Assembly (NCBI GenBank): GCA_964399675.1
Contig: CAYNRK010000001.1
Location: forward strand, 424 to 64,423
Direction of reading: 5' to 3'
DNA: 64,000 nucleotides
DNA from: an uncultured Gammaproteobacteria bacterium
GTDB lineage: Bacteria > Patescibacteriota > Patescibacteriia > UBA9934 > GWF2-40-263
Both the position numbers and the translations under genes were made by a program. Below, one piece after another: positions 18,214-56,923 of the stretch; positions within the stretch are counted from its first letter, which is position 1; every line of letters begins with the position of its first letter. The notes below the pieces were generated by a model. The model was given only the letters and a program-made list of their open reading frames with translations, made no database searches and was not told the origin of the DNA.

Positions 18214-18459
18214 TCGTCAATGCGGTTAGGACTAAATAGGCCAAGGCTCCCATACCTATACATTGCCCCCACGCAATGTTGGCCACGAAGCCGTTCTGAC
18301 TGCGTTGAAGAAACGTTCTTTCTACAACGCCTATCCCGGTATTATCCGGGGCTTATGTGAGTTTAAACAAAACCCTTGTTTAAGTTTGCATAGACCCAAA
18401 TGGGTCACACACAATTTCATAGCATTAAGCGCGGGATCCCCACACTCGCGCTTTTTGCA

Positions 18460-18495
18460 TTCCCGCGCCTAGAGCGCGCGCCTAGAGCGCGGGAA
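18460..18495. repeat. GC-rich hairpin repeat ttcccgcgc-(cctagagcgcgcgcctaga)-gcgcgggaa. A second copy is at 40309-40347
   Basis: Perfect 9-bp inverted termini ttcccgcgc/gcgcgggaa that contain a tandem 'cctagagcgcg'. The core 'cctagagcgcgggaa' is shared with the 40.3-kb copy. Confidence 0.5.
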
Positions 18496-18513
18496 ATCAT
18501 TTTTTGCTATACT

Positions 18514-20901
18514 ATGTTGAGTATGTCAACTCAAAGGAAAACAGAAGACTCTTTATTAAGTGCATCGCGTGGTTTGCTCTATGCATTGCTTTTTTTACTT
18601 CCTTTATTTTTTCTTCCAATAACCCTGGATATACTTGAGATAAACAAACAAACTCTTCTTTTAGTATTAGTCTTTGCATCAGCTCTTTTGTGGATTGGAT
18701 CAATGATGAAAAATAAACAGTTTGTTTTCAGACGAGGTTGGATAAATATATTTCCTGTTTTATTACTTGCTGGAATGGTTGTCTCTGCTTTTTATTCAGT
18801 AGCACCTTACCTTTCTTGGGTTGGTTCAATGACGCAGGAGTACACAAGCGCTCTTACAGCATTTGGAGGAGTAATACTTTTTTACTTGTTAGTTAACACA
18901 ACCCATGAGCGCGCTGCACATCGAATAGTTCATTTTTGGTTACTGTTAAGCGCTGTGATTGTTGGGCTTGTTGGTTCGCTTTCAATAATGGGGGCTTCTG
19001 TTTTCTCATTTTCGTTTGCGCAAAATCTTGTTTTCAACACAATTGGATCGCTAAGCACATTTGCGATTTATTTAGTTATCATGACAATTTTTGCTGGTGC
19101 TCTTCTTGTCTCTCACAAAAAACAAGACGCACTTTTGCATAACGGTTTTTTGGGTTTTGTGGAGCACCTCATGATCGTCTTGTTATTTTTGATAACGTTC
19201 TTTGTTTTGCTGGTAATTGACTTTGCACTACTTTGGCTCATCTTTTCACTTGGCATTATCTTTTTGATGATTTTTGCATTGTTTCGCGCAAAGGATTTTC
19301 AAAGCTCTTCCAAGTTTATTCTTCCTGTTCTTCTGTTGCTCTTAGGACTTCCGTTTTGGTTTTGGTTTTCTTCCCCATTTAATATTTCCCTTCCTGTTGA
19401 GGTTGTTCAAACTCACACAGCAAGCATGGGAATTGCCAATAGTGCACTTCAATCTTTTTCAAGTTCATATGGATCAGGGCCTGGAACATATTTATTTGAT
19501 TACACAATGTTTCATGACGCAGGGATCAATGAAACCAATTTTTGGAATACACGGTTTGATCGCAGCTCATCCTTTTATACAACACTTCTTGCAACAACAG
19601 GTTTTATAGGTACAGGTGTATGGCTTTTGTTTATACTTGTTTTGGCTCTTAGATCTCTTCAACAAATCATAAAACCTCAATCGCGAGAAGAATGGCTGCA
19701 AAGCTTTGTTGCGTTTATGCCATGGCTTACACTTGTTGTGGCATCATTCCTGTATCCATTCAACATGACTCTAATGTTTTTATTTTTTGCTTTTTCCGGT
19801 TTGCTTGGTTCGCAAGTTATTACAAAGACGCTTAAGAAATCATACTCACAAGCACCCTCTCTTGCTCTACTTTTCTCCGCAGTCTTTATGATAGGCTCGC
19901 TTGTTTTTTTGGTGGGAATTTTTGTTACTGCACAACGATATGGGGCTGAGATAGCTTATGCCAAGGCAGTTCGTTTGGATCGAGATGGGGCCAGTACTGA
20001 AGATGTGGTCAAATATTTAGACAAAGCAGCAACATGGAATCGTTTTCATGATGGGTATTACCGATCATTGGCTCGAACACTTCTATTGCGAGTGGACGAT
20101 TATATTAGCGAGTCTTCCTCTGGTGTTCAGATGACAGAAGAGTCGCGGAGTTATGTTCAGGGGATTGTTGCTTCATCTGTGAACGCGGCTGTTCGAGCAA
20201 CAGAGCTCTCTCCTTATAATGTTCAAAATTGGCTTACTCGCGGAGTTGTTTATCAAGAGCTTATGCCTCTTATGTCTGATGCAGAAGGTTTTGCTATTGA
20301 GGCACACACAAAAGCGGTTGAGCTTGAGCCATTCAATCCAAGTCATTGGACAGAGCTTGGACAAACATATCTTTCAGCTGCTGAATTAAAACGGCCACTA
20401 ACAGTTGCAGAGGATAAGAGTGTTTCTGAACAGGCAAAAGTTGATTTGCAGGAAATGTTACAAAAAGCTCATCAATCTTTTCAAAAAGCCATTGAACTTC
20501 GACCGGCGTATTCACCAGCGCATTATCAGGTGGCAGTTGCTCTTGAGCGTGAAGGAAAACTGGATGAAGCTGTAGGAAAAATGGAGGCAGTTGCCAAGTA
20601 CAATCAATTGGATGTTGGTGTGGCATTCCAGCTCGGGCTTCTTTATTTAAGACGCGGAGGTGAACTGGATCTTAAGCGTGCAAAAAATTCTTTTGAATAT
20701 GCAATCTCGCTTGCTCCGGCATATGCAAATGCAAGATGGTTCCTGGCTTCTATTTATGAGCGTGAAAAGGATTTTGCAGCCGCTGCTCATCAGGTTGAAA
20801 AAGTCCTTGAGTTGGATCCTGGCAATGAGCTGGTAAAGACCAGATTAGATAGATTGCTAACAGGACAGGTTACAAAAGGTTTGCCAGAGTCTCTTAAATA
20901 A
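18514..20901 (+). CDS. Polytopic membrane protein (O-antigen-ligase/Wzy-like region) with a C-terminal TPR-repeat domain
   Basis: Probable start is the ATG at 18514 (MLSMSTQRK...), because the ORF-track start at 18400 lies inside the hairpin repeat. More than 10 hydrophobic helices, followed by TPR-like repeats ('AIELRPAYSPAHYQVAVALEREGKLDEA', 'AISLAPAYANARWFLASIYEREKDFAAA'). Confidence 0.6.
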   Translation: MLSMSTQRKTEDSLLSASRGLLYALLFLLPLFFLPITLDILEINKQTLLLVLVFASALLWIGSMMKNKQFVFRRGWINIFPVLLLAGMVVSAFYSVAPYLSWVGSMTQEYTSALTAFGGVILFYLLVNTTHERAAHRIVHFWLLLSAVIVGLVGSLSIMGASVFSFSFAQNLVFNTIGSLSTFAIYLVIMTIFAGALLVSHKKQDALLHNGFLGFVEHLMIVLLFLITFFVLLVIDFALLWLIFSLGIIFLMIFALFRAKDFQSSSKFILPVLLLLLGLPFWFWFSSPFNISLPVEVVQTHTASMGIANSALQSFSSSYGSGPGTYLFDYTMFHDAGINETNFWNTRFDRSSSFYTTLLATTGFIGTGVWLLFILVLALRSLQQIIKPQSREEWLQSFVAFMPWLTLVVASFLYPFNMTLMFLFFAFSGLLGSQVITKTLKKSYSQAPSLALLFSAVFMIGSLVFLVGIFVTAQRYGAEIAYAKAVRLDRDGASTEDVVKYLDKAATWNRFHDGYYRSLARTLLLRVDDYISESSSGVQMTEESRSYVQGIVASSVNAAVRATELSPYNVQNWLTRGVVYQELMPLMSDAEGFAIEAHTKAVELEPFNPSHWTELGQTYLSAAELKRPLTVAEDKSVSEQAKVDLQEMLQKAHQSFQKAIELRPAYSPAHYQVAVALEREGKLDEAVGKMEAVAKYNQLDVGVAFQLGLLYLRRGGELDLKRAKNSFEYAISLAPAYANARWFLASIYEREKDFAAAAHQVEKVLELDPGNELVKTRLDRLLTGQVTKGLPESLK

Positions 20902-20951
20902 AAACCCGTGTAAAGCACACGGGTTTTTTGATCGAGCTTAGCTCGATTTTT
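20902..20951 (+). terminator. Tandem rho-independent terminators
   Basis: aaacccgtgt-aaagc-acacgggttttttg, followed immediately by atcgagc-tta-gctcgatttttt. Confidence 0.65.
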
Positions 20952-21413
20952 TACTTGGCAAAAATTTTGTTGACTGTTAGGATAGCTCGGACGGTTGAGG
21001 GCGGTGTTGCGCTTTCACAAATGACCATCTTCAGGCACAAATCGACGGGCAGCGTTAAGGTGGGAATCCCCGCTGAACACAAGTCGGTCTTTTATGCAGC
21101 AGCGCAAGCGGCTGTTCACAGTGTCTGGATGTTAAGGAGTGTCATGCGCAACGCAAACTCAGATCGTCGTTACCAATGTGGTGCTGGTGGTTGCAGTGCC
21201 CCCACCTGGCCGGATCCCGTGTTCTTCCCGTCGCTCTTGGGTCACGTACCCAGGCCGCGGCGCTTTGAGCGAGGATTCGTGCCCTGGCGGCGCTGGAGCA
21301 AGCTGGTTCCGCAGAAGTAGCGGTCAGCCGTCAGGTCGTCCGTGCGCGGGTACGCTGCGTGCGGGCGACCACTTCTTAGATCACCACAGTCCATCCCAAA
21401 AGGGGGAGACACG

Positions 21414-22349
21414 ATGAGTAAATTCGTCGAGATGCTTCAGGCTCGCTGGCAAGCGGGCAAGTTCACCTGTGTTGGCCTGGATCCCAGGCTTGCGCAGATC
21501 CACGAGAGCATCAGTGGAGAAACAGGTGCCTTGCGTCTGTACCGCTTTTGCATGAAAATCGTTGAGGCAACGGCAGCTTATGCCCTCTGCTTCAAGCCGA
21601 ACATCGCGTTCTGGCTGAGGGTTCCAGAAGGAGATAGAGCACTCAGGTCGCTCATCGAGCACGTCCGTTCGAGGTATCGACATGTACCAATCGTTCTGGA
21701 CCACAAGCTCGGGGACATCGGCTCCACCAACGAGGCGTACGCAGACTACGCGCTCGACGAGATGGGGGCTGATGCTGTCACGCTCAATCCGTACCTGGGC
21801 GCTGGTGCGAATGCTCCGTTCCTCGATCGCGAAGACAGGGGCTGCGTCTGGTTGTGCAAGACGTCCAACCCTGGTGCCGAGGAGTTCCAGGACCGGCAAG
21901 TCGTCGTGCACGGCGAAGAGCTCGCGCGCGTGAACGACACCCCGACCGGTGCCGTGCTCGAGCAGTTCGAGGATACGGACGTTCACACACTTCTGCTCCA
22001 CCAGCTCGTGGCGCACAACGTCACCCACAACTGGAACCGAAACGGGAACTGCGCGCTCGTGACCGGAGCCACGTTCCTCTCGGACATGGCACTCGTTCGC
22101 AAGATCGTCGGCGAGATGCCACTGCTCATTCCCGGGATCGGCAAGCAGACCGAGGGCCAGCCTGATGTGCTCGGGTCCACGGTCGAGGCCGGCATGAGCC
22201 CCGAAGGTGTGGGCATGATCATCAGCTCCAGCCGCGGTGTCATCCACAAGTCCACAGAAGCGGACTTCGCTGACGCGGCAGCGGTTGAGGTGATCCGGCT
22301 CAACACCGAGATCAACGCGGCTCGCGAGGCACTCCTGGCTGCAGCCTAG
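21414..22349 (+). CDS. pyrF: Orotidine-5'-phosphate decarboxylase, long type-2 form. High-GC gene in a low-GC genome
   Basis: Strong SD (aaagggggag) 5 nt before the ATG at 21414. 'KFTCVGLDP' and 'PIVLDHKLGDIGSTNEAYA' match the type-2 ODCase D-x-K-R/L-G-D-I-G-x-T signature. GC by eye exceeds 60%, versus approx 40% in the flanks. The antisense ORF 21381..22373 is rejected. Confidence 0.75.
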   Translation: MSKFVEMLQARWQAGKFTCVGLDPRLAQIHESISGETGALRLYRFCMKIVEATAAYALCFKPNIAFWLRVPEGDRALRSLIEHVRSRYRHVPIVLDHKLGDIGSTNEAYADYALDEMGADAVTLNPYLGAGANAPFLDREDRGCVWLCKTSNPGAEEFQDRQVVVHGEELARVNDTPTGAVLEQFEDTDVHTLLLHQLVAHNVTHNWNRNGNCALVTGATFLSDMALVRKIVGEMPLLIPGIGKQTEGQPDVLGSTVEAGMSPEGVGMIISSSRGVIHKSTEADFADAAAVEVIRLNTEINAAREALLAAA

Positions 22350-22380
22350 CCTCAGAGGCAACTGCTTCATCAACTCTCAC

Positions 22381-22407
22381 GAACGACTCGCCCGAGTCGT
22401 TCTTTCT
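22381..22407 (+). terminator. Rho-independent terminator after pyrF
   Basis: gaacgactcg-ccc-gagtcgttc followed by tttcta. Confidence 0.6.
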
Positions 22408-22423
22408 ATTACGGCTTAATATT

Positions 22424-22519
22424 GCGTCTTTGCGAGGAAGCCCGTCAGACGGGCTGACGAAGCAATCTCCGCATAACGGGGATTGCCGCGTCGGCTTTTG
22501 GGCTCCTCGCAATGACACA
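22424..22519. repeat. Long imperfect hairpin repeat (MITE-like), copy 1 of 3
   Basis: Left arm 'tcTTTGCGAGGAaGCCC..GACGAAGCAATCtCCG' pairs with right arm 'CGGggATTGCcgCGTCggc..GGGCTCCTCGCAATGACACA'. It shares TIR-like ends (TTGCGAGGAG / CTCCTCGCAATGACAC) and the core GACGAAGCAATC with the copies at 24424 and 32535. Confidence 0.6.
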
Positions 22520-22566
22520 GGAGAGGTTGAGTAAAACCAAGATTTCTTATACTCTATCCTCAGCAC

Positions 22567-22642
22567 GGGCCCTTGGCGAAGTTGGTATCGCGCTTGCATG
22601 GCATGCAAGAGATCGCGGGTTCGAGCCCCGCAGGGTCCACCA
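22567..22642 (+). tRNA. tRNA-Ala (anticodon GGC), CCA encoded
   Basis: Full manual fold. Acceptor gggccct/agggtcc with G3:U70, D-stem gcga/tcgc, anticodon stem cttgc/gcaag with loop atGGCat, T-arm gcggg-ttcgagc-cccgc. Confidence 0.85.
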
Positions 22643-22737
22643 CCGAGCTGAGCTCGGTTGACTGCAAAAAAGCAAAGCTGAGCTTTGCTGCAGGTCATCC
22701 GTGTATTCTTCAGCGAGGCAGTCGAGCTGAGCTCGAC
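22643..22737. promoter_or_regulatory. Three spaced perfect palindromes sharing the core AGCTGAGCT: ccgagctgagctcgg at 22643-22657, gcaaagctgagctttgc at 22672-22688 and gtcgagctgagctcgac at 22721-22737
   Basis: Seen directly. They lie between the tRNA-Ala 3' end and an AT-rich -10 (tttaatataat) upstream of the gene at 22776. They could be operator sites or tRNA-flank hairpins. Confidence 0.4.
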
Positions 22738-22775
22738 GTGGCAAGCCAATCAAAAATTTAATATAATCAGAAAAT

Positions 22776-23567
22776 ATGGATAAGACCAAACTATTTTTCG
22801 TAATCGCAATGGTTATCATTGTGGCAATTATAATTGCGGTTTCACAGAAAGACCAAATCATTTCTGTAACCAATTTTGAGGAATGCATAGACGCTGGCAA
22901 TCCAGCAATGGAAAGCTATCCAAGGCAATGTCGTCATAATGACAGAACATACACTGAAGACATTAGTGACAAAACAAAAGAAGTTAAACCCATTTATGTC
23001 TCTACTCCAAAGCCAAACGATATTATTACAAGTCCTTTGACTATAAAAGGAAAAGCAATTGGTACATGGTTTTTTGAAGGAGACTTTCCGGTTATGCTAA
23101 CTGATTGGGATGGCAAAATTATTGCTGAAGGATTTGCTGCGGCAAAAGGTGATTGGATGACAGATGAGTTTGTGCCATTTACTACTTCGCTTGAGTTTGT
23201 TAATCCTGAATATCGCAACAATGGAACTTTGATTTTGCAAAAGGACAATCCATCAGATTTGCCTGAACTCGATGATGCGCTTGAAGTATCGATTTATTTT
23301 GAGGAGCAAGAAGATGTTGGTCCAAAGCTTCCAAAAGACAAGGCTTATAAAATTGCAGATGATAGTGAAGAATGTTCAATGGCTGGAATTGCAAAAGAGG
23401 ATCACGTTTATAATGAGATTACAAAAACTTGGTGGATTGATTTGGAAAGAGAACCAGAACTTGAAAAGGACGGATGCAATCCAGCGTGTGTTGTTAATGA
23501 GGAAACCTTAGAAGCAGAAGTAAATTGGAGATGTACCGGCCTTATTCCAGAGGAAGAAATCGAATAA
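22776..23567 (+). CDS. Membrane-anchored protein with a Gmad2-like immunoglobulin-type domain
   Basis: N-terminal TM (FFVIAMVIIVAIIIAV). 'ITSPLTIKGKAIGTWFFEGDFPVMLTDWDGKIIAEGFAAAKGDWMTDEFVPF' resembles the Gmad2 Ig-like fold. Acidic C-terminus with Cys pairs. Confidence 0.45.
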   Translation: MDKTKLFFVIAMVIIVAIIIAVSQKDQIISVTNFEECIDAGNPAMESYPRQCRHNDRTYTEDISDKTKEVKPIYVSTPKPNDIITSPLTIKGKAIGTWFFEGDFPVMLTDWDGKIIAEGFAAAKGDWMTDEFVPFTTSLEFVNPEYRNNGTLILQKDNPSDLPELDDALEVSIYFEEQEDVGPKLPKDKAYKIADDSEECSMAGIAKEDHVYNEITKTWWIDLEREPELEKDGCNPACVVNEETLEAEVNWRCTGLIPEEEIE

Positions 23568-23662
23568 TTAAATTAAAAAATACCTCAGTATTGTCTGGGG
23601 TGTTTTTTGTTTGACGAATAACACAGGACTAGATATGATCATTTCGCAACCCGGAGGATGCA

Positions 23663-24331
23663 ATGGAACATCACTTTTCGTCAGACCTACAAGAGCTCGC
23701 TCGGCAACTGCTCGAGATTGGGGCCGTGAAGTTTGGAAGCTTCCAACTCAAGCTTCACGAGACCAAGCCGGATGCACCGCTCTCGCCCATCTACTTCAAC
23801 CTGCGAACAGAGGACAACCCCAACCCTGGGCCGCTCACCGCGCGCGAGCTGGATCTGATCGCGAAGATCTTCGCGAGGATGATCATGCAGCAGGTGCTGC
23901 GGTTCGATGGCATCTGCGGCATCCCGAACGCAGGAACGCCTCTTGCACAAGTGCTCGGTGTCCAATGTACAGCTCATCCGCTCGTGACTCTGCGCAAGAC
24001 CACGGGCGAGAGCAGTCGCAAGATCGACGCTGTTCTCGATCGCGGAGGACTTGGGTCAGGTGCACGCATCCTGCTCCTGGACGATGTGATCACAGGAGCG
24101 GACACCAAGAAGGAGGCTTTGGCTGTTCTACGGGAAGCCGGCTTCCAGGTCACCGAGCTTCTCGTGGTCGTGGACCGAGAGCAGTCCGATGGCGTGGCAA
24201 CGCTCGCGGCAGACGACTGCACTACCCGTGCCATCTTCACCATGAGCGAGCTGCTCGACTTCTATGTGCACATCGGGTGGATCACGCCGGACAAGCAAGC
24301 CGAGGTTCTCGCCTACATCGCGGCCAACTAG
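23663..24331 (+). CDS. pyrE: Type-I phosphoribosyltransferase, orotate phosphoribosyltransferase-like. High-GC gene
   Basis: PRPP-binding motif 'ILLLDDVITGADTKKEA'. The N-terminal 'FGSFQLKLHETKPDAPLSPIYFNLR' resembles the OPRT 'FGEFTLKSG..SPYYFD' region. At 222 aa it fits PyrE. High GC. The overlapping out-of-frame ORF 23611..24393 is rejected. Substrate assignment (orotate versus another base) is inferred. Confidence 0.6.
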   Translation: MEHHFSSDLQELARQLLEIGAVKFGSFQLKLHETKPDAPLSPIYFNLRTEDNPNPGPLTARELDLIAKIFARMIMQQVLRFDGICGIPNAGTPLAQVLGVQCTAHPLVTLRKTTGESSRKIDAVLDRGGLGSGARILLLDDVITGADTKKEALAVLREAGFQVTELLVVVDREQSDGVATLAADDCTTRAIFTMSELLDFYVHIGWITPDKQAEVLAYIAAN

Positions 24332-24423
24332 TCCCCCCGAAGCTCGAAGAGCGAAGGGGGATTTCTGTTTCTCGACACTTTTTAATTTTGTAGATATACT
24401 CTTTTTGTTATTATCATTTTCTT

Positions 24424-24545
24424 GCGTCGTTGCGAGGAAGGAGGCCTCAAGCCGACTGACGAAGCAATCTCCGTGGAAGGCGCACGGAGATTGCTTCGTC
24501 GGCTTGCCGGCCTCCTCGCAACGACGCCGTGAGGGCAATGACACA
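24424..24545. repeat. Long hairpin repeat (MITE-like), copy 2 of 3, lying in the ychF 5' leader
   Basis: Nearly perfect approx 50-bp arms: gcgtcgttgcgaggaAggaggccTcaagccgacTgacgaagcaatctccgtg / cacggagattgcttcgtcggcttgccggcctcctcgcaacgacgc. The tail gggcaatgacaca ends 9 nt before the ychF ATG. Confidence 0.65.
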
Positions 24546-24553
24546 AAAAATTT

Positions 24554-25594
24554 ATGCTTCAAGTCGGAATCGTTGGGCTTCCAAATGTTGGCAAGTCCAC
24601 ACTTTTTAAAACACTTACCAAAAAGCAAGTTGATTGCGAGAACTTCCCTTTTTGCACCATTGAGCCAAATGTTGGTGTTGTTGAGGTTCCGGATGAACGT
24701 CTTGAAAAGCTTGCAACAATGTCTCGTTCAGAAAAAATTATTCCAACCGCAATTGAATTTTTGGATATTGCCGGACTTGTAAAAGGCGCGCATAAAGGAG
24801 AAGGACTTGGAAATCAATTTCTTTCAAACATTAGAAACGTTGACATGATCGTTCATGTGATCCGTGCTTTTGAGGATGAAAACGTTCACCATGTTGATGG
24901 TTCAATTGATCCAAAGCGGGATACAGAAACTATTGAAACAGAACTTGCAATGGCAGATCTTGAAACAGTTGAAAAGCGTTTGAATAATGTTCAATCAAAA
25001 ATGAAAGCTGGCAGAACAAAAGAATTGGAAGCCGAAGAGCACATCATCAAACAATTACTTGGTGCGGTTAGTGAAGGGAAGATGGCAAATACTGTTGAGC
25101 TTTCAGAAGACGAGGAAAAGATTGTAAAGTCTTTGAATCTTTTAACTCGCAAGCCGATTCTTTATATTCAAAACATTGCTGATGACAATGTCTCAGAAGA
25201 TTTTTCAATAAATTTTAAACTCGAGTCAGAGATTGTTGAAATGCCAGAGGAAGAGCAAGAAGAATTTTTGCGTGAGCTTGGACTTGAGCAGTCAGGGCTT
25301 GATCGGTTGATTACTGAATGTTATAAAAAGTTGGATCTAATTACCTTTCTAACAACCGGGGAACAAGAAACAAGAGCTTGGACTGTTAAAAAAGGTTCCA
25401 AAGCTCCTGTTGCTGCCGGAGTGATTCACACTGATTTTGAAAAAGCATTCATCCGCGCAGAGATAATTACTTATGAAGATTTTGTTGCCCTCGGTGGGGA
25501 GGCTGGAGCAAAAGAAGCTGGTAAGCAAAGAATTGAAGGAAAAGAGTATGTGATTCAAGATGGGGACGTGTGCCACTTCAGAGTTGGAGTATAA
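24554..25594 (+). CDS. ychF: Ribosome-binding ATPase YchF (Obg-family P-loop NTPase)
   Basis: 'MLQVGIVGLPNVGKSTLF' G1 motif, 'FCTIEPNVG' and 'DIAGLVKGA' YchF signatures, C-terminal TGS-like end. Confidence 0.85.
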   Translation: MLQVGIVGLPNVGKSTLFKTLTKKQVDCENFPFCTIEPNVGVVEVPDERLEKLATMSRSEKIIPTAIEFLDIAGLVKGAHKGEGLGNQFLSNIRNVDMIVHVIRAFEDENVHHVDGSIDPKRDTETIETELAMADLETVEKRLNNVQSKMKAGRTKELEAEEHIIKQLLGAVSEGKMANTVELSEDEEKIVKSLNLLTRKPILYIQNIADDNVSEDFSINFKLESEIVEMPEEEQEEFLRELGLEQSGLDRLITECYKKLDLITFLTTGEQETRAWTVKKGSKAPVAAGVIHTDFEKAFIRAEIITYEDFVALGGEAGAKEAGKQRIEGKEYVIQDGDVCHFRVGV

Positions 25595-25647
25595 CTGGCA
25601 AAAATTTCAAATCAAAAAATGACGGCTGGCCGTCATTTTTTAGTTTC

Positions 25648-26745
25648 TTATATCAATTCATTTTCCAGAGTGATTTCTCCATGTAGATCCTCGATCATTA
25701 TTTGTTTAATGTCCTCATAGCTTTTCTTTTGACCAAGCAACCATCCTAACTTAACTGTCATTGCTTCAATGCTCATATCAAAAGCAGGAATTGCTAAATC
25801 GTTATCTCGTAAATGCTGCCCTGTTTCATTAACCTGAAAATTTGATACACCTCCAGGAGCCTGGGTTGTAACAACAATTGGGATTTTCTTTTCTTTCAAA
25901 TATTCAAACGCTGGAAATAAATGAGAGCTTGGATCACCTGCACCAAACGCCCGAAACACAAATGCTTTTATTCCATTGTTTTCTACCAGCGATTGAAAGA
26001 CATTCACTGACATTCCTGGGAACTCTGTAAAAGACGCAATGCTCTTTGTATCAAAATCTTTTTTAACACTCAGCACTCTTGATTGAACAGCCAATGCCTT
26101 TCTTTGAGACAGATACTTAACATGTTTTCTCATTGCTGCATCATCTATTCTCATGAACCTTCCAATGTTTCCTAAGGTTCCGGTTTGAAATGCTTTGAAC
26201 GGATCATAATCAAAATCAGTTCCTTTTTTTACTCTTGCGCCAGTAATTATTTTACTTCCAAAAACACAAATCACACCTTTAACTTCATGATAATCCCAAA
26301 CAGCTAAACGCAAAGCATTAACTAAGTTGGTCACAGCATCTGTTCCTAAATATCCCAAAGGTACTTGAGCTCCTGTGAGAATCACAGTCTTGTTTATATT
26401 TTCAAAAGCAAACGAAAGCGCTGCAGCTGTGTATCCCATTGTGTTTGTTCCGTGCAAGACAATAAAAGAATCATAGTCATCGTACTTTTCCTGAATTTCC
26501 GTTGCCAAGGTTGTCCAGTTTTCTGGTTGAATATTTGAACTATCAACATTAAACAACTCCACAATTGAAGGATTGATTTCAATGTTCCAATTCTTTTTAA
26601 CTATATCTACTGAGTTATTTAGAATTGAAAGAAAGCTGTTTGGATCAGATTTTGTATTTTGTGAAACATCGCTTTTTGCAACATTTCCAGCCACAGTCCC
26701 TCCGGTGAAAATTACCAATATTCTTTTTTGCGCGTATGTTGTCAT
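25648..26745 (-). CDS. ansA: L-asparaginase (type I family)
   Basis: N-terminal 'ILVIFTGGTVAG' asparaginase motif, a 'HGTNTM' block, and a length that fits the type I enzyme. Confidence 0.7.
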   Translation of the reverse strand: MTTYAQKRILVIFTGGTVAGNVAKSDVSQNTKSDPNSFLSILNNSVDIVKKNWNIEINPSIVELFNVDSSNIQPENWTTLATEIQEKYDDYDSFIVLHGTNTMGYTAAALSFAFENINKTVILTGAQVPLGYLGTDAVTNLVNALRLAVWDYHEVKGVICVFGSKIITGARVKKGTDFDYDPFKAFQTGTLGNIGRFMRIDDAAMRKHVKYLSQRKALAVQSRVLSVKKDFDTKSIASFTEFPGMSVNVFQSLVENNGIKAFVFRAFGAGDPSSHLFPAFEYLKEKKIPIVVTTQAPGGVSNFQVNETGQHLRDNDLAIPAFDMSIEAMTVKLGWLLGQKKSYEDIKQIMIEDLHGEITLENELI

Positions 26746-26778
26746 AGTTTTTTTGTTGTTGGGAGTAGGATAATATTT

Positions 26779-27981
26779 TTATAAAGAAAGCACAACAATT
26801 TCGCGGGCGATGTATTGTTTGTCGCGTTTATACAGATAGGAACCAATAAAATTAAAACCAATTTTTTCAAGCATAGATTTGAGCGGGAGTCTTTCAACAG
26901 AACCATCTGAAAGAACAAAAGCCGGAAAAGCTACAACAGCCATTCCGTCTTTTTTTAAAAGTTTGTGAAGTTCAACAAAAGAAGGTCGATACATGGACAA
27001 AAGATCTTTTGTAACTTTTTCTATTTTTGATTTGCGTATTGCACTTGATCGAGGTGTGCCAAGAAAAGTTTCAGTAACAATTAAATCAACCGGCTCTTGT
27101 ATGGATTCGGATAATGCTTCAGCCGAACTGACAAACAATTCTAAATCCTGATCCCACTTATGGGACGGTCGTCCCATAAGTGGGTCATAGGTTTCTTTGA
27201 GCCATTGAAGATTTTTTCGCGTATCATCAATTGCTTTTTCTGAAATATCTGACCCAATAACTTTTGTAAATCCTAAAAGCATTGCTTCCATAAGAATGGT
27301 TCCGGAGCCACAAAATGGATCCAAAAGTGGGCCGATCGTCTCATGATTTGATGAAGCAAGGTTGATCATCATGCGTGCGAGCTTTGGTGGAAGCATGCCT
27401 GACTTCGCGTCTCTTGCCGGTCGTCCAAAGTCTCGTTTTGACCATGCTTTAAAATCTTGAACAGTTTCAGTTTGACCGATCAGGATTTTATTTTTGCATG
27501 CAATAAACACAAATTCTCCACCTGATTCAAGTAATCCATTTTGTTTAACAATGACTGATGACAGCTTAGGTTCCTTTGAACTTACATATCGAACCGGGCG
27601 TCCTGTTTCTTTTAGAGCTTTCTTAATTTCTTTTCCAAGTTCCTTTAATGATTTTTCAATTCTTTTTCCAAGCTCTTTGTTCCCGTTGTCATAAACACTT
27701 AGCCCAAAAGAAATTTTATTTTTTCCAATGGCTTCTGAGGCAAAGCTGGCAATGAGTTCAGTGACATCTTTTATTTCATCCTGCTTTAGCTCGCCAATAA
27801 TATTTCCGATTTTTATAGTTCCAGCCAATCTGTTCTGAAGCTCCCCTAGATTATTTTTTACATCATCAAGCAACAGAATTTGGGAATCAGTGTTAATCCA
27901 CTCTTTAGGCGGATTTTCAATCACAGAATAAATTTCCTGAATTGATAACTTTGGATGAGATCCTAATATAAAATAGATCAT
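26779..27981 (-). CDS. Putative RNA (guanine-N2) methyltransferase, THUMP/Trm11/RlmL-like
   Basis: SAM motif I 'LLDPFCGSGTILMEA' and a downstream 'IGSDIS' motif II. The N-terminal approx 180 aa are a THUMP-like RNA-binding region. Confidence 0.55.
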   Translation of the reverse strand: MIYFILGSHPKLSIQEIYSVIENPPKEWINTDSQILLLDDVKNNLGELQNRLAGTIKIGNIIGELKQDEIKDVTELIASFASEAIGKNKISFGLSVYDNGNKELGKRIEKSLKELGKEIKKALKETGRPVRYVSSKEPKLSSVIVKQNGLLESGGEFVFIACKNKILIGQTETVQDFKAWSKRDFGRPARDAKSGMLPPKLARMMINLASSNHETIGPLLDPFCGSGTILMEAMLLGFTKVIGSDISEKAIDDTRKNLQWLKETYDPLMGRPSHKWDQDLELFVSSAEALSESIQEPVDLIVTETFLGTPRSSAIRKSKIEKVTKDLLSMYRPSFVELHKLLKKDGMAVVAFPAFVLSDGSVERLPLKSMLEKIGFNFIGSYLYKRDKQYIAREIVVLSL

Positions 27982-28060
27982 AACAAGCCCTACTATACAG
28001 CAGGGTTGACATTATCGGCAATTTATGGAAAAGTGTTCGGTCCTCAAACGGGAGGTCTAC

Positions 28061-47200: not shown

Positions 47201-48245
47201 TCGTGTTGAGGAATTGTTTGAAGCTCGAAATCCAAAACAAAAGGCCATTATGTCAGAGGTCTCTGGGAAGGCAACCATTGAATCACTTCAACGCGAAATT
47301 GTTCAAGCTGGAACAGGAAAACAAATTGTTGACACACGACCTGGACAAAAGACAGTAAAGATCGAATACCTTGGATTAGACGAAGAAATTTTCTTGTATG
47401 GAAAAACAGGAGAGTGCTTTGTTAAGGACGGTGATTCAGTTAAGAAAGGACAGGTGGTTGCTAAAAAAGGTTCAGGGGTTGAACTCTTGGCTCCGGCTGA
47501 TGGAACAATTACAATCAAAAAAGAAAATTCAGTGACTGTAATTTTTGAGATGTTGAAAATTAGAGAGTACATTATCCCACCTGGTTACACGCTTTATGTA
47601 AAAGACGGTGATGAGATCCAGGCCGGAGATACACTAACAGATGGAAACCTTGATTTGCAAGTTTTGTTCAAATTTAAAGGTCAGGATGCAGTGCAAAAAT
47701 ATCTCTCAAAGGAAATTCAGTTCATCTATTCAAGTCAGGGACAAAAGCTTAATAACAAGCACATTGAGATTATAATTCGACAAATGTTTTCACGCGTAAG
47801 AGTTGCTGATCCAGGCGATACAGATCTTTTGCCAAACAATATTATTGAAAAAGCATCGTTTTTGGATGCTAATGATGGTGTTGGAAAAGGTGAAAAAGCA
47901 GCCGAGAGCGAGCCTCTGTTCTTAGGAATTACAAAGATTTCTCTTTCAACTGATTCGTGGTTGTCTTCTGCGTCTTTCCAAGAAACTGCAAAAGTTCTCA
48001 TCAACGCTGCTGTAACAGGAAAGATTGATAGGCTGGAGGGTCTGAAAGAAAATGTGATTATTGGACGATTGATTCCTGCAGGAACAGGATTCGGAGACAT
48101 GCAAGAGGAGCTTATTGGAACCATTGAATATGAAAAAGATGAGCCAGTGGTTGAAGAGGCACCGGTTGATGTAACAGAAGAAGTTGAAAAAGCATTTGAA
48201 GAAAATAAGACTGTTGAGACAAAAGAGGCTCCAGATAATGAGTAA
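44217..48245 (+). CDS. rpoC: DNA-directed RNA polymerase subunit beta'
   Basis: Zn-finger '[23 protein letters not shown]', the catalytic '[12 protein letters not shown]', and 'trigger-loop' blocks. It begins 1 nt after the rpoB stop. Confidence 0.95.
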   Translation: [1342 protein letters not shown]

Positions 48246-48313
48246 ATCTAAAAGCGGTGTTTGAAAAGACGCCGCTTTTAGATTTCAGTAGATTTTGTTA
48301 TCATTTCCACACT

Positions 48314-48799
48314 ATGAAAAAAGATGGACATATAATAATGGGAGTAGATCCAGGCTATGGCAGAATGGGTTTTGGAGTTGTTTATGTTGAGGGTGGTGAA
48401 GTGGAGCTTGTTGATTATGGTGTTGCCACAACAACAAGCGGAGAGCACTTTGAGGATCGGTTGCTTAGTTTGGCAAATGATTTACATGATTTAATGGTTC
48501 ACCATAATCCAGATGTTGTGGCAGTTGAAAAATTGTTTTTTGGAAAAAGCACAACCACAGCCATGAAGGTTGCAGAAGCAAGAGGGGTGGCACTTCTTAT
48601 GGCAGCGCAATCCAGAGTTCCGGTTTTGGAATTCACTCCAGCACAGGTTAAAAAAGCACTTACTGGAAACGGAAAGGCCACAAAAGCTGGGGTGCAAAAG
48701 ATGGTAAAGAAGTTGCTGAGTTTGCCTCGCGTACCAAAACCGGATGATGCTGCAGATGCCCTGGCTGTTGCAATTACAGCCGCAAATAAAAAGTGGTGA
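48314..48799 (+). CDS. ruvC: Holliday-junction resolvase RuvC
   Basis: Start at MKKDGHIIMGVDPGYGRMGFGVV (catalytic Asp in 'GVDPG'). A later 'E..FFG' motif and C-terminal 'DDAADALAVAI'. Confidence 0.8.
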   Translation: MKKDGHIIMGVDPGYGRMGFGVVYVEGGEVELVDYGVATTTSGEHFEDRLLSLANDLHDLMVHHNPDVVAVEKLFFGKSTTTAMKVAEARGVALLMAAQSRVPVLEFTPAQVKKALTGNGKATKAGVQKMVKKLLSLPRVPKPDDAADALAVAITAANKKW

Positions 48800-48800
48800 T

Positions 48801-49109
48801 ATGAAAATTTATTGGGTTAATCATTTGATAGGTGTTGAGGATTATGATTCTGAAAAGCATAAACTTAAAATGACCAGGTTTAATTATTGGCACAAAGAAG
48901 AGTTAATTGTGGCAGGGGATTTGGGTGGACATTATGACAATGCTCAAGCAGCAAAAAAGTTTGTTGATGATATACCAGACAGAAAACCCGATGGTGCTGG
49001 AAGTTGCTCGGCTGGCAAGACTCTAAGATGGAATAGTTATGGATATGGAATCGAAACTCCGGAAGATTTAAAAGCTATTATTTTAGATGTGCTCGGTTTG
49101 TCCGGGTAA
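48801..49109 (+). CDS. Hypothetical protein (103 aa), translationally coupled to ruvC
   Basis: ATG at 48801, 2 nt after the ruvC stop. No recognisable motif. Confidence 0.4.
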   Translation: MKIYWVNHLIGVEDYDSEKHKLKMTRFNYWHKEELIVAGDLGGHYDNAQAAKKFVDDIPDRKPDGAGSCSAGKTLRWNSYGYGIETPEDLKAIILDVLGLSG

Positions 49110-49156
49110 TGTCAGAGATTTTTTTCTTTGATCAAAAAAAGGTAAGGTAATATTGT

Positions 49157-49297
49157 ATGAAGGATTATTCAACTAAAAAGGCTCAGGAGATTCAGGACGA
49201 TATTTTAAAACAGATGACTCCAACACAGCGTATTGCACTCATGGCCAGACTCTCAAAATTTGCTCAGAAGCTTTCTCGTTTACGCCTGAAGGAATGA
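49157..49297 (+). CDS. Small 46-aa ORF, translationally coupled to the downstream nucleotidyltransferase gene (possible partner or antitoxin-like)
   Basis: ATG at 49157 after aaaaaggtaaggtaa. The stop TGA at 49295-97 lies 1 nt before the ATG at 49299. Encodes MKDYSTKKAQEIQDDILKQMTPTQRIALMARLSKFAQKLSRLRLKE. Confidence 0.3.
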   Translation: MKDYSTKKAQEIQDDILKQMTPTQRIALMARLSKFAQKLSRLRLKE

Positions 49298-49298
49298 T

Positions 49299-49850
49299 AT
49301 GAGTTTTGAACATTTTTTGAGTGTTTTGGGCAAGATCTTGGAAGACCTCAATGTGTGCTATTTTGTAACAGGCGGATTTGCTGTTTGTGTTTGGGGTCGG
49401 CCAAGAACTACTTTTGATCTCGATTTGGTTATTGTAATGAATCAGGCTGATGTCAATCCCTTTATACAGTCGATGCGCAATATTGATGAATCAATCTATG
49501 TTGATGAGCAGATGATACGATCCGAAATTGATCGAAAAGGAGAATTTAATATCATTCATCCAAACTCTGGGCTTAAAGTAGATTTTTTTGTAAAAAAAGA
49601 CGATGAGTTAAGCCGGACACAAATGGCTCGAAGAATTGAAAAAAAAATTAATGGTCAAACAATTTATTTTATATCCCCCGAGGATTTGATCATAAGCAAA
49701 CTCATTTGGGCAAAAAAGTCTGGATCCAATAGGCAATTAGATGATGCACAATCAGTGTTTGAAATAATGAAGAATGAATTGGATAGTCAATATATTAATG
49801 AATGGTTAAAAAGGCTCGGTCTTGAAAAATTACTAAAATCAATACAGTAA
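49299..49850 (+). CDS. Nucleotidyltransferase-fold protein (Pol-beta-like minimal NTase N-domain plus an approx 120-aa C-domain)
   Basis: 'YFVTGGFAVCVWGRPRTTFDLDLVI' matches the hG[GS]...[DE]h[DE]h NTase signature, as in AbiEii/MNT-type proteins. Confidence 0.5.
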   Translation: MSFEHFLSVLGKILEDLNVCYFVTGGFAVCVWGRPRTTFDLDLVIVMNQADVNPFIQSMRNIDESIYVDEQMIRSEIDRKGEFNIIHPNSGLKVDFFVKKDDELSRTQMARRIEKKINGQTIYFISPEDLIISKLIWAKKSGSNRQLDDAQSVFEIMKNELDSQYINEWLKRLGLEKLLKSIQ

Positions 49851-49896
49851 TGAAAAGACCACCCTAAGGTGGTTAAGTGGCCGAAGGCTGGTTGGC

Positions 49897-50826
49897 CTAG
49901 GAGCCGTTGCTGCGCAGGATCATGTCCAGAAGAGCCATGCGCACGAGCATGCCGTTTTCGACCTGCCTGAAGTAGGCAGCTCGAGGATCAGCATCGATCT
50001 CAGGATGGATTTCATTGACCCTGGGCAAAGGGTGCAAGATAGCCATGCCCTCCCTGGCAAGATCAAGCTCCCGCTTGCGCAAGATGTAGCGATCACGAGT
50101 TGCCAGGTAATCGGTCTGATCTGTGAATCGTTCCTTTTGTACACGTGTCATATAGAGCACGTCTGCCCGGCCGATTGCAGCGTCAAGGCTTTCCATTTCT
50201 TGGAAACCAAGACTCTTTTCCCCGAGCTCGTCTTTGATCCTCTGAGGAATACAGAGGCTCTCCGGAGACACAAAGATCAGTTGCACATTGTAGAGTGCGA
50301 GTAGCCGAGCCAGCGAATGTACTGTTCGGCCATACTTGAGGTCACCGACCATGACCACAGTTGTGCCATCAATCCTGCCAAGCTCGCTTTGGATTGTGTA
50401 GAGATCCAAGAGCGCTTGAGTAGGATGCTCGCCAGCGCCGTCACCTGCGTTGATGATTGGCTTTGTTGCAACACTTGCTGCAAGTCGTGCCGAACCAATC
50501 TCCGGATGACGAAGCACAATCGCATCAGCGTACCGACAGATTGTGCGAATCGTGTCCTGAAGGGTTTCCCCTTTGACAGCAGACGAAAATTGCGCTGCGC
50601 TTTCTGTGCCAACCACACGTCCGCCCAGACGATGCATTGCAGTATCGAACGACATCTTTGTTCTGGTCGAGGGCTCGTAGAACAAAGACGCAAGCACATA
50701 GCCTGAGAGAAGCTGGCTGCCGTGGTTCTTTGCCACAGACCGCATTTCATCAACACGAGCAAACAGCGACGTGATGATCTCCAGTGTGAGCTGGTCTACA
50801 CTGACCAGGTGCTCAAGCTTTGCCAT
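49897..50826 (-). CDS. pyrB: Aspartate carbamoyltransferase catalytic subunit. High-GC gene
   Basis: 'SLFYEPSTRTKMSFDTAMHRLGG' (carbamoyl-phosphate-binding STRT motif) and 'EHPTQALLDLYT' (HPTQ is typical of ATCase, whereas OTCase has HPCQ). GC by eye exceeds 55%. Confidence 0.7.
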   Translation of the reverse strand: MAKLEHLVSVDQLTLEIITSLFARVDEMRSVAKNHGSQLLSGYVLASLFYEPSTRTKMSFDTAMHRLGGRVVGTESAAQFSSAVKGETLQDTIRTICRYADAIVLRHPEIGSARLAASVATKPIINAGDGAGEHPTQALLDLYTIQSELGRIDGTTVVMVGDLKYGRTVHSLARLLALYNVQLIFVSPESLCIPQRIKDELGEKSLGFQEMESLDAAIGRADVLYMTRVQKERFTDQTDYLATRDRYILRKRELDLAREGMAILHPLPRVNEIHPEIDADPRAAYFRQVENGMLVRMALLDMILRSNGS

Positions 50827-50967
50827 GGATCTTGCTCCTATTTGGATTTGCCAGTTTTTCTGGCAAAGAATTGGCCTTATGCCGCGCTGAGCATAGCAAT
50901 GAATAATAGGTGTGTCAAATTGATTGATTCAAAACAAAAAATCCCGGCTGTTGCCAGGATCTTTTGT

Positions 50968-51042
50968 TGGAGCGGGTGAAGGGGATCGAACCCTCATCTC
51001 GACCTTGGAAGGGTCGCATTCTAGCCATTGAACTACACCCGC
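50968..51042 (-). tRNA. tRNA-Gly (anticodon TCC), CCA encoded
   Basis: Reverse complement gcgggtg-ta-gttc-aatggcta-gaat-g-cgacc-ctTCCaa-ggtcg-agat-gaggg-ttcgatc-ccctt-cacccgc-t-cca. Confidence 0.85.
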
Positions 51043-54357: not shown

Positions 54358-55347
54358 ATGGACGAATTAAAAAAATACGTACAATTTGCAGTAAAGAAAA
54401 AAGCATCGGATATTCATCTTATTGCAAATGCTTTTCCATACATTCGTGTAAACGGAAAACTTATTGCAATCAATAAAACCCTGCTTTCTCCGCAAGGAGT
54501 TCAGAAAAAAGCAATGGGATTACTTAAACAAAATCAACTTAAAAAACTTGAAGTAGACGGCGATGTGGATGTTGGTGTTGTTGTGGATGGTGTTGGACTC
54601 AGAATTAACATTCATAAAAACTCAAGTGGATTTGGAATGGCAATTCGAGTTATTCCAACAAAGATCCCAACTCCAGAAGAGTTGAACTTTCATGAAACAA
54701 TGGCCCAGATTCCAGAATATGAAAACGGTCTGGTGATTGTTAGTGGTGCAACAGGAACAGGAAAATCTACAACCCTTGCTTCAATCATTGAGCAAATGAA
54801 CCAGACTTCAAAGCGCCACATTATAACCCTGGAAGATCCAATAGAATATCGGTTCAAAGACAAAGAGTCACTTATTGAGCAAAGACAACTTGGACTTGAT
54901 TTTTCCAGCTTTCCACAAGGCCTTCGTCATGTTCTGCGCCAAGATCCGGATGTGATTATGATTGGAGAAATGCGCGATCAAGAAAGCATAGCTTTAGCTC
55001 TTACCGCGGCTGAGACCGGACACCTTGTTTTATCAACATTGCACGCACCAAACGCACCCGAAGTTGTTGAACGGATTGTTAATGTTTTTGAAGGGATTGC
55101 TCAACAGCAAATCCTTATTCAATTATCAGCGACTCTTCGTATGGTTGTAGCTCAAAAGCTTTTACCAAAAAAAGATGGAGGACTTATTGCTGCAAGAGAA
55201 GTTTTGGTAACAACTTCTGCAATACAAAATGCAATCAGACAAAATAATCTTGCCACACTTAGATCTGCAGTCCAGACAGGAAAGAAGCACGGTATGATTA
55301 GTATGGATAGGGCAGTGGAAGAGCTTGAAGCCAAGAAATTGATTTAA
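54358..55347 (+). CDS. pilT: Type IV pilus retraction ATPase PilT
   Basis: 'VSGATGTGKSTTLASII' Walker A, Asp box, 'IMIGEMRDQESI' and 'GHLVLSTLHAPNA' His box. Approx 330 aa with no N1 domain, typical of PilT. Confidence 0.8.
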   Translation: MDELKKYVQFAVKKKASDIHLIANAFPYIRVNGKLIAINKTLLSPQGVQKKAMGLLKQNQLKKLEVDGDVDVGVVVDGVGLRINIHKNSSGFGMAIRVIPTKIPTPEELNFHETMAQIPEYENGLVIVSGATGTGKSTTLASIIEQMNQTSKRHIITLEDPIEYRFKDKESLIEQRQLGLDFSSFPQGLRHVLRQDPDVIMIGEMRDQESIALALTAAETGHLVLSTLHAPNAPEVVERIVNVFEGIAQQQILIQLSATLRMVVAQKLLPKKDGGLIAAREVLVTTSAIQNAIRQNNLATLRSAVQTGKKHGMISMDRAVEELEAKKLI

Positions 55348-55355
55348 AATTTGAT

Positions 55356-56441: not shown

Positions 56442-56453
56442 GGTGTCTTCGAT

Positions 56454-56909: not shown

Positions 56910-56923
56910 GATAAGAGCATATT

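Follow-up and report, generated by a model that had tools for sequence, protein, structure and literature searches.

Five genes in a 64,000-nucleotide stretch of contig CAYNRK010000001.1 (assembly GCA_964399675.1; the whole stretch is called the window here) stand out from their low-GC neighbours by a strongly elevated GC content: pyrF and pyrB of pyrimidine biosynthesis, a gene for a pyrE-like phosphoribosyltransferase (PRTase), a gene for an M50 protease and a gene for a 540-residue orphan protein (hyp540). The host is a member of Candidatus Uhrbacteria (Candidate Phyla Radiation, CPR; Patescibacteria) with a low-GC chromosome (about 0.41): the top genome matches of its ychF gene are metagenome-assembled genomes (MAGs) of Candidatus Uhrbacteria, at 74% identity or lower, and the order TPR protein, ychF, methyltransferase, rpsF, ssb and class II aminoacyl-tRNA synthetase (aaRS)-like gene is kept in dozens of Uhrbacteria loci. 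The GC-rich segments (islets 1 to 5) and the features that frame them, including the anchors of two intergenic slots (A and B) and of the slot that holds pyrB, are as follows.

18400..20901, plus strand: TPR-repeat protein, 833 residues (Pfam TPR); low-GC core gene, left anchor of slot A
20975..22416, plus strand: islet 1, a contiguous GC-rich block of about 1.45 kb made up of leader, small open reading frame (ORF), spacer, pyrF and terminator
21144..21320, plus strand: small ORF, 58 residues, with an AAGGAG Shine-Dalgarno sequence and the motif CGAGGCSAPxWPDPVFFP
21414..22349, plus strand: pyrF, type-2 orotidine-5'-phosphate (OMP) decarboxylase, 311 residues (TIGR02127, PF00215)
22567..22642, plus strand: tRNA-Ala(GGC) (ARAGORN, Rfam), between pyrF and the PRTase gene, 217 bp after pyrF
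22776..23567, plus strand: Gmad2-domain protein (Pfam PF10648), GC 0.378, parting pyrF and tRNA-Ala from the PRTase gene
23663..24331, plus strand: islet 2, PRTase resembling orotate phosphoribosyltransferase (OPRT), pyrE-like, 222 residues (PDB matches, DD motif, gene context)
24554..25594, plus strand: ychF GTPase (Pfam); low-GC core gene, right anchor of slot A
26779..27981, minus strand: methyltransferase (Pfam; orthologues in 40 loci); core gene, left anchor of slot B
28061..28885, plus strand: islet 3, M50 site-2 protease, 274 residues (PF02163); an alternative start at 28025 would give 286 residues
29005..29550, plus strand: rpsF, ribosomal protein S6 (Pfam, synteny); core gene, right anchor of slot B
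38594..40216, plus strand: islet 4, hyp540, a GC-rich, Arg-rich orphan of 540 residues with an N-terminal CxxC...CQxC domain
48257..48799, plus strand: ruvC (Pfam); core gene, anchor of the pyrB slot
49897..50826, minus strand: islet 5, pyrB, catalytic chain of aspartate carbamoyltransferase (ATCase), 309 residues (TIGR00670)
50968..51042, minus strand: tRNA-Gly(TCC) (ARAGORN, Rfam), 141 bp from the pyrB start

In 500-bp sliding windows the background GC lies at 0.31-0.50, and the intervals 21001-22500, 23501-24500, 28001-29000, 38501-40500 and 50001-51000 reach 0.50-0.63. When islets are called as 600-bp windows at least 0.10 away from the window median, exactly five segments lie above it by that amount and none below it. 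The 36 background genes have a GC of 0.401 (standard deviation 0.028, range 0.34-0.46) and a GC at third codon positions (GC3) of 0.307 (standard deviation 0.036); against these host genes the five islet genes, which span 0.52-0.61 in GC and 0.57-0.76 in GC3, have z scores of 4.4-7.5 and 7-12, respectively (GC and GC3: pyrF 0.610 and 0.756; PRTase 0.596 and 0.726; M50 protease 0.525 and 0.640; hyp540 0.612 and 0.660; pyrB 0.532 and 0.568). The original prediction, an earlier reading of the bare sequence, had picked out these five genes as GC-elevated, and both the sliding windows and the per-gene values (0.525-0.612 versus 0.401) bear it out, in GC3 as well. The islets are heterogeneous in codon usage: pyrF and the PRTase gene are alike in their codon choices, pyrB, hyp540 and the M50 gene retain host-like alanine codon usage, and this pattern points to more than one possible source or age. 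In pyrF and the PRTase gene the GC of the first, second and third codon positions each imply a source genome of about 60-64% GC, by regression coefficients reportedly those of Lawrence and Ochman from 1997.

The identities first proposed for the five genes proved right. PyrF scores 180.3 bits with TIGR02127 (cut-off 110.6) over profile positions 1-260 of 261, a full-length match to this equivalog family, and PyrB scores 350.6 bits with TIGR00670 (cut-off 236.95) and has both OTCace domains (PF02729 and PF00185). The M50 protease matches PF02163 (139.9 bits versus a cut-off of 27.2, E 1e-40) with its HExxH catalytic core, the PRTase is OPRT-like yet below the curated thresholds, and hyp540 falls into no family, with no Pfam or NCBIfam match. 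Each gene had also been described as monocistronic with its own Shine-Dalgarno sequence and terminator; Shine-Dalgarno sequences and terminator hairpins are indeed present at the islet genes, but islet 1 holds the 58-residue ORF and non-coding DNA in addition to pyrF. The three pyrimidine genes do not encode three consecutive late steps, as had been supposed: pyrB corresponds to step 2, pyrE to step 5 and pyrF to step 6 of the pathway, dispersed over 30 kb, and Pfam scans of the 64-kb window found no carAB, pyrC or pyrD. About 9 kb beyond its right end (contig L184) there is no further protein-coding GC islet, nor are carAB, pyrC or pyrD among the Pfam matches recorded for the called genes; this extension carries type IV pilus genes and then a GC-higher end without long ORFs, which is tentatively taken to be rRNA because of its composition, its position at the end of the contig and a tRNA-like piece in it. 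Compared with the canonical pathway (carAB, pyrB, pyrC, pyrD, pyrE, pyrF), the window thus has bona fide members in pyrB and pyrF and, in the PRTase, an OPRT homologue that in other CPR bacteria lies in operons with pyrF, pyrD, a pyrC-like amidohydrolase and pyrB; it differs in having three steps only, in scattered genes. A nucleotide-cost explanation, by which pyr mRNAs would be pyrimidine-poor, was rejected (coding-strand C+T of 0.486 in pyrF versus 0.462 in host genes).

The junctions of the islets are real. Exact protein matches led to independent contigs that are 99.95-100% identical to the window and together span every islet junction; they come from European Nucleotide Archive (ENA) re-assemblies of several SAMN samples, from JGI data sets 3300009106, 3300009107 and 3300009128, and from per-run Logan contigs, and the junctions recur in them at 100% identity across different samples and pipelines. 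The left junction of islet 1 is present in seven independent contigs (L093-L099), and both pyrB junctions are present in L190-L192. At least 12 independent contigs start or stop at 22287-22436, by the stable hairpin at the 3' end of pyrF, with ragged ends; L086, with its start at 22295 inside pyrF, spans the break near 22.3-22.4 kb through its overlap with L093, whose end lies at 22350. These breaks suggest a drop of coverage or sequencing at structured, GC-rich DNA rather than a strain variant.

The signal of islet 1 is a property of a block of DNA and not of codon choice, because its non-coding DNA is also GC-rich: GC is 0.51-0.69 throughout, with 0.533 in the non-coding leader and 0.645 in the spacer (21321-21413), versus 0.369 in host intergenic DNA. 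The small ORF matches no Pfam family; homologues lie directly 3' of the TPR gene in three relatives (L006, L016 and L021), another occurs in L012, its GC exceeds that of the locus in five of five genomes, and by this distribution it appears to be specific to Uhrbacteria, or restricted to the CPR. The closest homologues of PyrF (P0002, 55% identical; P0003, 46%) both share the synteny of the window: the P0003 contig (L181) has the TPR gene (51% identical), pyrF and tRNA-Ala (90% nucleotide identity) in this order, and the P0002 contig (L180) has pyrF, tRNA-Ala and the PRTase gene, the tRNAs after pyrF in the two contigs being 85-90% identical to that of the window. PyrF groups with P0002 and P0003, outside the clade of GC-rich Xanthomonadales from which most of its named matches (43-46%) come.

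Slot A, between the TPR gene (orthologues 39-53% identical, upstream of ychF, in 29 Uhrbacteria or other Patescibacteria loci) and ychF, ranges in length from 42 bp to 8.8 kb and carries varied cargo across 29-31 related loci. In one of them (L025) it carries a pyrF only 33% identical to that of the window, which forms a deep branch with the pyrF of L118 in a midpoint-rooted tree; a pyrF of another lineage in slot A therefore points to independent acquisition in the same slot. The GC excess of pyrF over its neighbours is +0.10 in L181, about +0.09 in L180 and +0.075 in L025. The Gmad2 gene is specific to this lineage: it is missing from slot A in all Uhrbacteria relatives, and its sole homologue is in L119. 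Like it, an asparaginase gene (25648-26745) and a Fic protein gene (30487-31476) stand outside the conserved Uhrbacteria order and have host-like low GC. Because these three are low in GC and the islets are rich in it, the variable genes form two compositional classes. More speculatively, the asparaginase would supply aspartate, the substrate of ATCase.

The PRTase of islet 2 lies below the curated cut-offs of TIGR00336 (63.6 bits versus 106.8) and PF00156 (25.2 versus 26.3). It contains the acidic motif ILLLDDVITGADTK for binding of phosphoribosyl pyrophosphate (PRPP), in which D141 is invariant and D140 nearly so in the family alignment, and all 11 of its 11 PDB sequence matches are to OPRT or UMP synthase (best 4e-15). 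Because of these PDB matches, the DD motif and the pyr gene context, it is very probably the CPR form of pyrE, with a predicted enzymatic function to match; it differs from canonical OPRT in a CPR-specific KLHE..PDAPLSP segment that replaces the usual N-terminal orotate/PRPP loop. The named members among its 119 detectable homologues are from Uhrbacteria, Kerfeldbacteria, Wildermuthbacteria, Parcubacteria and Paceibacterota, bar five archaeal OPRTs of Haloterrigena that end the list at E values of about 1e-4, and the family thus appears to be confined to Patescibacteria. A metagenome scan with the family alignment retrieved 80 CPR loci, with pyrF directly upstream of the PRTase gene in at least 14 and pyrB nearby in eight; the order is pyrB-pyrF-PRTase-pyrD in L130 and pyrF-PRTase-amidohydrolase (pyrC-like)-pyrB-...-pyrD in L172. 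Judged by such gene orders, a pyrimidine gene cluster appears to be native to part of the CPR and recurrent there.

In seven Uhrbacteria genomes the PRTase gene is located directly upstream of ychF, as in the window, and in five of the seven (L008, L013, L015, L017 and L027) it has a GC excess of +0.08 to +0.15, the excess being about zero in L006 and L007. Across 58 CPR loci the GC of the PRTase gene correlates with flank GC at r 0.89, the excess averaging +0.053, and the GC3 excess of the family averages +0.087 (n=39), with core genes at about zero. The PRTase gene of the window, at +0.20 GC and +0.42 GC3 over its flanks, is an outlier in a family that normally ameliorates, because elsewhere the GC of the gene tracks that of the host with a small mean excess. 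Intrinsic GC-richness of the family (+0.05 GC, +0.09 GC3) was considered as a full explanation and found insufficient.

At islet 5, pyrB is convergent to ruvC in three other loci (L182, L183 and L187), where its GC excess is +0.05 to +0.10 (L182), +0.10 (L183) and about +0.1 (L187); in four other CPR loci pyrB is, if anything, GC-poor. The window pyrB and its syntenic Uhrbacteria counterparts P0122, P0123, P0124 and P0141 make up one clade, which adjoins a large clade whose five named members are Chloroflexota/Anaerolineae, the source of the named pyrB matches at 57-58%; the window copy is about equidistant (58-61%) from the Uhrbacteria copies and the Chloroflexota-side clade. L183 and L182, in each of which a convergent pyrB lies downstream of ruvC, have a ruvC that is 78% and 65% identical, respectively, to that of the window. 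For pyrB, the window and L183 agree at only 59%, despite the 78% of their ruvC genes, whereas L182 and L187 are 72% identical in pyrB and 75% in yebC; the excess divergence of pyrB in the first pair fits replacement. In related Uhrbacteria the GC-rich patch by ruvC also holds purine genes (purC in L183, 479-3508; purH in L187, 2250-6924) and an acyltransferase gene, and GC-rich islets seem to be enriched in nucleotide-synthesis genes in general.

The M50 protease of islet 3 occupies slot B, the gap between the methyltransferase gene and rpsF, which in most relatives is about 120 bp long, with 24 of the 31 falling at 97-300 bp. Unrelated, GC-richer ORFs fill it in L007, L032, L040, L048 and L055; the M50 gene is there in the window only, no homologue of it was found in the related loci examined, and from this comparison it appears to have been inserted where most relatives have only a short, unoccupied intergenic gap. 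The protein resembles RseP and other site-2 proteases in its transmembrane core with HExxH, and its top PDB matches are to RseP; unlike RseP, it is 274 residues long, has no PDZ domain match and aligns only over its N-terminal 115-130 or so residues and C-terminal segments, and its score with the RseP equivalog TIGR00054 is below the cut-off (119 bits versus 147.55).

For hyp540 of islet 4, 19 weak homologues were detected among 1.84e9 representative proteins; one of them, 28% identical, is encoded in L016 at a roughly syntenic site, a similar distance from ychF. Its AlphaFold2 (AF2) model has a mean pLDDT of 62, is confident for residues 1-80 and 165-313 only, and in a Foldseek search against the PDB returned nothing below an E value of 0.48. 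A phage origin of hyp540 or of the M50 gene was rejected, as no relatives of either were found in viral contigs. The only positions at which contigs L001 and L003 depart from the window are clustered in a very GC-rich hairpin just 3' of hyp540 (40306-40326). Between ftsK and hyp540 there is a candidate short, very basic ORF (37977-38167; frame and coordinates tentative) with a GC of about 0.55 and its own Shine-Dalgarno sequence, followed by several Shine-Dalgarno-like sites before 38594; translation of that interval as given runs into a stop codon.

GC-rich islets are not peculiar to the window. By the same shift of at least 0.10 GC over 600 bp, 784 kb of Uhrbacteria loci contain 57 GC-rich and 14 GC-poor islets, or 7.3 versus 1.8 per 100 kb, a four-fold difference in counts that are not fully independent, since the loci all represent one neighbourhood; 433 kb of non-CPR ychF loci contain no GC-rich and eight GC-poor islets. 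The other Uhrbacteria islet ORFs are mostly orphans or cell-wall-related genes. Across the 29-31 related loci, what slots A and B contain ranges from nothing to several kb, a presence/absence polymorphism. GC-rich Patescibacteria, with flank GC of up to 0.68, do exist.

A moderately probable explanation, and the one that we prefer, is that single transcription units have been gained or replaced recurrently at hot-spot slots, with DNA from GC-richer donors, several of them CPR bacteria. We infer the mechanism, donors and timing of such transfer as follows. Variable slots between core genes (TPR-ychF, methyltransferase-rpsF, downstream of ruvC, and ftsK-rpoB) would each receive one transcription unit that has the DNA composition of a genome of 53-64% GC, either as a new gene gained by horizontal transfer or through overwriting of a resident copy (xenologous replacement). 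The route may be natural transformation followed by illegitimate or short-homology recombination, possibly anchored on adjacent tRNA genes, of which islets 1 and 5 each have one and islets 2-4 have none; DNA uptake without integration machinery is the likely route because no integrase, transposase or att-like repeats were found in the window. The donors would be several GC-richer organisms; that of the block of small ORF and pyrF and that of the OPRT-like gene would have had to be a Patescibacterium or Uhrbacterium, because these families occur only there. Retention was probably selected, as the cargo would give ATCase, OPRT and OMP decarboxylase steps that reduced cells otherwise lack. The GC of all three codon positions, the GC-rich non-coding DNA, and variable slots with unrelated cargo favour transfer; the outlying GC of the window's PRTase gene, the surplus of GC-rich islets in Uhrbacteria loci and the type IV pilus cluster, of a kind that serves in DNA uptake, also speak for it, and passages of PMC12455944 document horizontal transfer into Patescibacteria, nucleotide-metabolism genes included.

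Several observations weigh against recurrent transfer. Among about 15 billion proteins there is no donor or near-donor: the closest non-self homologues of pyrF (55%), PRTase (56%) and pyrB (61%) are as remote as the core genes of the host are from its nearest sampled relatives, so that no recent donor can be named. Because relatives share their synteny, pyrF, the PRTase gene, pyrB and the small ORF are residents of conserved slots. Copies in the same slots are GC-rich in divergent relatives (PRTase in five of seven; pyrF in L180, L181 and L025; pyrB in L182, L183 and L187; the small ORF in five of five), which obliges the transfer model to assume many parallel events, with a GC-richer source in all of them. 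As vertical descent would predict, the tree of the PRTase is broadly congruent with that of ychF. No islet proved to be flanked by direct repeats in a repeat search, and no integrase, recombinase or transposase turned up in Pfam scans that took in essentially every window ORF of 100 residues or more. The GC borders of the islets match the borders of transcription units, which the insertion model does not itself predict.

Many of these points would be accommodated if the genes were native, inherited vertically since the ancestor of a Uhrbacteria subclade and held at a higher GC equilibrium by a locus-specific force, be it GC-biased gene conversion at recombination hot spots, transcription-linked mutation bias (in one variant, rarely expressed units escape AT-biased damage) or selection. 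We consider this unlikely. Same-slot, GC-rich orthologues in many divergent relatives, divergence from the closest homologues equal to that of host core genes, the broad congruence of trees and the systematic GC3 excess of the PRTase family (with core genes near zero) agree with it; such a force would explain why the GC borders coincide with promoter-to-terminator units, non-coding DNA included; and the GC of an ancient transfer should have decayed by now, as inferred from amelioration theory (Lawrence and Ochman 1997). With vertical inheritance since those splits, synonymous sites would be saturated; it would then take a force active at the locus to sustain 0.2-0.45 of extra GC3. However, no known mechanism gives +0.3 to +0.45 GC3, two PRTase orthologues (L006 and L007) are without excess, the pyrB genes of four other CPR loci do not share it, the same slots carry unrelated GC-rich cargo elsewhere, with slot B mostly empty, the slot-A pyrF of L025 is from a different lineage, and the divergence of pyrB between the window and L183 is above expectation. 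We are correspondingly doubtful of an extension of this idea, that Uhrbacteria maintain a stable second compositional compartment of fixed-position units inherited vertically at 10-20 GC points (GC3 +0.2 to +0.45) above the genome; its units would include pyrB, the pyrE-like gene, pyrF, the purC and purH of relatives, the small ORF and orphans.

Far less probable is the piecemeal addition, from one distant, non-CPR, high-GC donor, of a pathway that the clade had lacked, which is what the original prediction implied. The strongly atypical composition, the named pyrF matches to GC-rich Xanthomonadales and pyrB matches to Chloroflexota/Anaerolineae, and the absence of the M50 gene from slot B in relatives would suit it. 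However, the PRTase family appears to be Patescibacteria-only and the small ORF Uhrbacteria-specific, pyr clusters are widespread in the CPR and the pyrF-PRTase pair appears native there, the window pyrF and pyrB nest outside the Xanthomonadales and Chloroflexota clades, and the codon usage of the islets is heterogeneous. Nor are the genes new to the lineage, since relatives have pyrF, tRNA-Ala and the PRTase gene between the same flanks and pyrB beside ruvC. For pyrF, the PRTase gene and pyrB the single-donor model is largely refuted; what stands of the proposed horizontal acquisition is the foreign-looking composition, the enrichment in pyrimidine genes and the M50 insertion, and what falls is the acquisition of a new pathway, with exactly these genes, from one high-GC source. 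Joining in silico of high-GC segments from another organism, which had been named as a possible refutation and to which the many assemblies breaking at 22287-22436 might seem to point, is scarcely credible, because all junctions recur identically in independent assemblies, the break is ragged, hairpin-adjacent and bridged, and relatives show the same mosaic.

Under recurrent transfer, the islets would be an example of the compositional islets that arise by horizontal transfer, here in the CPR, with an unusual GC-rich polarity and recurrence at conserved slots. They resemble the islets described by Lawrence and Ochman in their sharp, gene-scale shifts of GC and codon usage, their patchy occurrence among relatives, their variable intergenic slots and the position of two of them beside tRNA genes; they differ in being GC-richer than the host, whereas the islets of the non-CPR controls are GC-poor only, in being single transcription units without integrase, transposase or flanking direct repeats, and in that several of the genes have same-slot orthologues in distant relatives. 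Classical integrative genomic islands share the atypical composition and the presence/absence polymorphism; unlike them, the islets have no integrase, recombinase or transposase. The transfers among groundwater MAGs in PMC12455944, so far as its relevant passages describe them, are similar in their streamlined CPR recipients, nucleotide-metabolism cargo and exchange both from CPR to CPR and from non-CPR to CPR; they differ in being recent and detected by nucleotide similarity of co-occurring MAGs, whereas composition and slot comparison were used here, with no donor. The literature searched, together with selected terms within PMC12455944, describes neither GC-rich islets or pyr genes in Uhrbacteria nor GC-rich cargo recurring at fixed Uhrbacteria slots.

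Two kinds of repeated palindromic sequence occur near the islets. One is a family of near-perfect, GC-rich hairpins of about 100 nucleotides, with RNA folds of -65 to -85 kcal/mol (z -8 to -11), three copies of which lie in the window:

22417..22515, strand not assigned: hairpin repeat copy 1 (fold -65 kcal/mol, z -8.4)
24425..24530, strand not assigned: hairpin repeat copy 2 (fold -84.7 kcal/mol, z -10.7)
32540-32625, strand not assigned: hairpin repeat copy 3, the third of three window copies

Two of the three follow islet genes (pyrF and the PRTase gene) and the remaining copy follows a non-islet gene. Their conserved core is TTGCGAGGA...GACGAAGCAATC(TCCG), and because this core recurs in other Patescibacteria loci (L012, L101, L110, L116 and L169), the hairpin would be a CPR-wide palindromic intergenic element. 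The other is the palindrome GAGCTNAGCTC, which occurs three times (20934-20944, 22645-22655 and 22724-22734; 0.05 expected by chance), its copies bracketing islet 1 and tRNA-Ala and at least one of them lying within a terminator-like hairpin. A shared flanking repeat or att site seems an unlikely explanation of the islets, as GAGCTNAGCTC is found only around islet 1 and the hairpin family is not limited to islets.

Some further features lie outside the islets. Type IV pilus genes and giant repeat proteins are common among CPR bacteria. At 54358-63574, and continuing in L184, there is a large cluster resembling type IV pilus or type II secretion systems, with at least two PilB/PilT-type ATPases, PilC-like proteins, several prepilins and HAMP-domain proteins, which is possible DNA-uptake machinery. 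Two assemblies of one population differ 3' of the window in the pilus region (L184 14703-16644 versus L185 5091-6993), L185 having two small ORFs and a TrmB-family regulator that are uncalled in L184. A protein of 3273 residues (8392-18213) has many internal repeats and no Pfam match, and the 1240-residue protein encoded ahead of it (4673-8395) has fn3, purple-acid-phosphatase-N and CarboxypepD_reg domains; both are probably cell-surface proteins. A 338-residue protein (31515-32531), which adjoins efp (32632-33246), consists of a class II aaRS catalytic core only, and its domain content and neighbourhood point to an EF-P modifier of the EpmA/PoxA type and away from a tRNA synthetase.

CPR bacteria are usually described as unable to make nucleotides, and the premise that small-genome symbionts normally lack the pyrimidine pathway is too strong for this Uhrbacteria clade: a subclade keeps ATCase, an OPRT-like enzyme and OMP decarboxylase, and the purC and purH genes of relatives share the compositional oddity. 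Composition-based binning and contamination filters could wrongly remove such metabolic genes from CPR MAGs. A GC excess that is kept up in situ would make these genes an unusual bacterial case of base composition that persists gene by gene; were there a compositional compartment, its cause would not be transfer but a locus-specific force (biased conversion or, in a lineage poor in repair, a mutation bias that depends on expression). If, instead, the genes are re-acquired repeatedly at the same slots, the DNA fixed by these CPR bacteria would be GC-rich, the reverse of the AT-rich bias in most bacteria, a polarity that fits uptake of community DNA better than delivery by phages or plasmids, and nucleotide-synthesis capacity in Uhrbacteria would be a dynamic, transfer-dependent trait.

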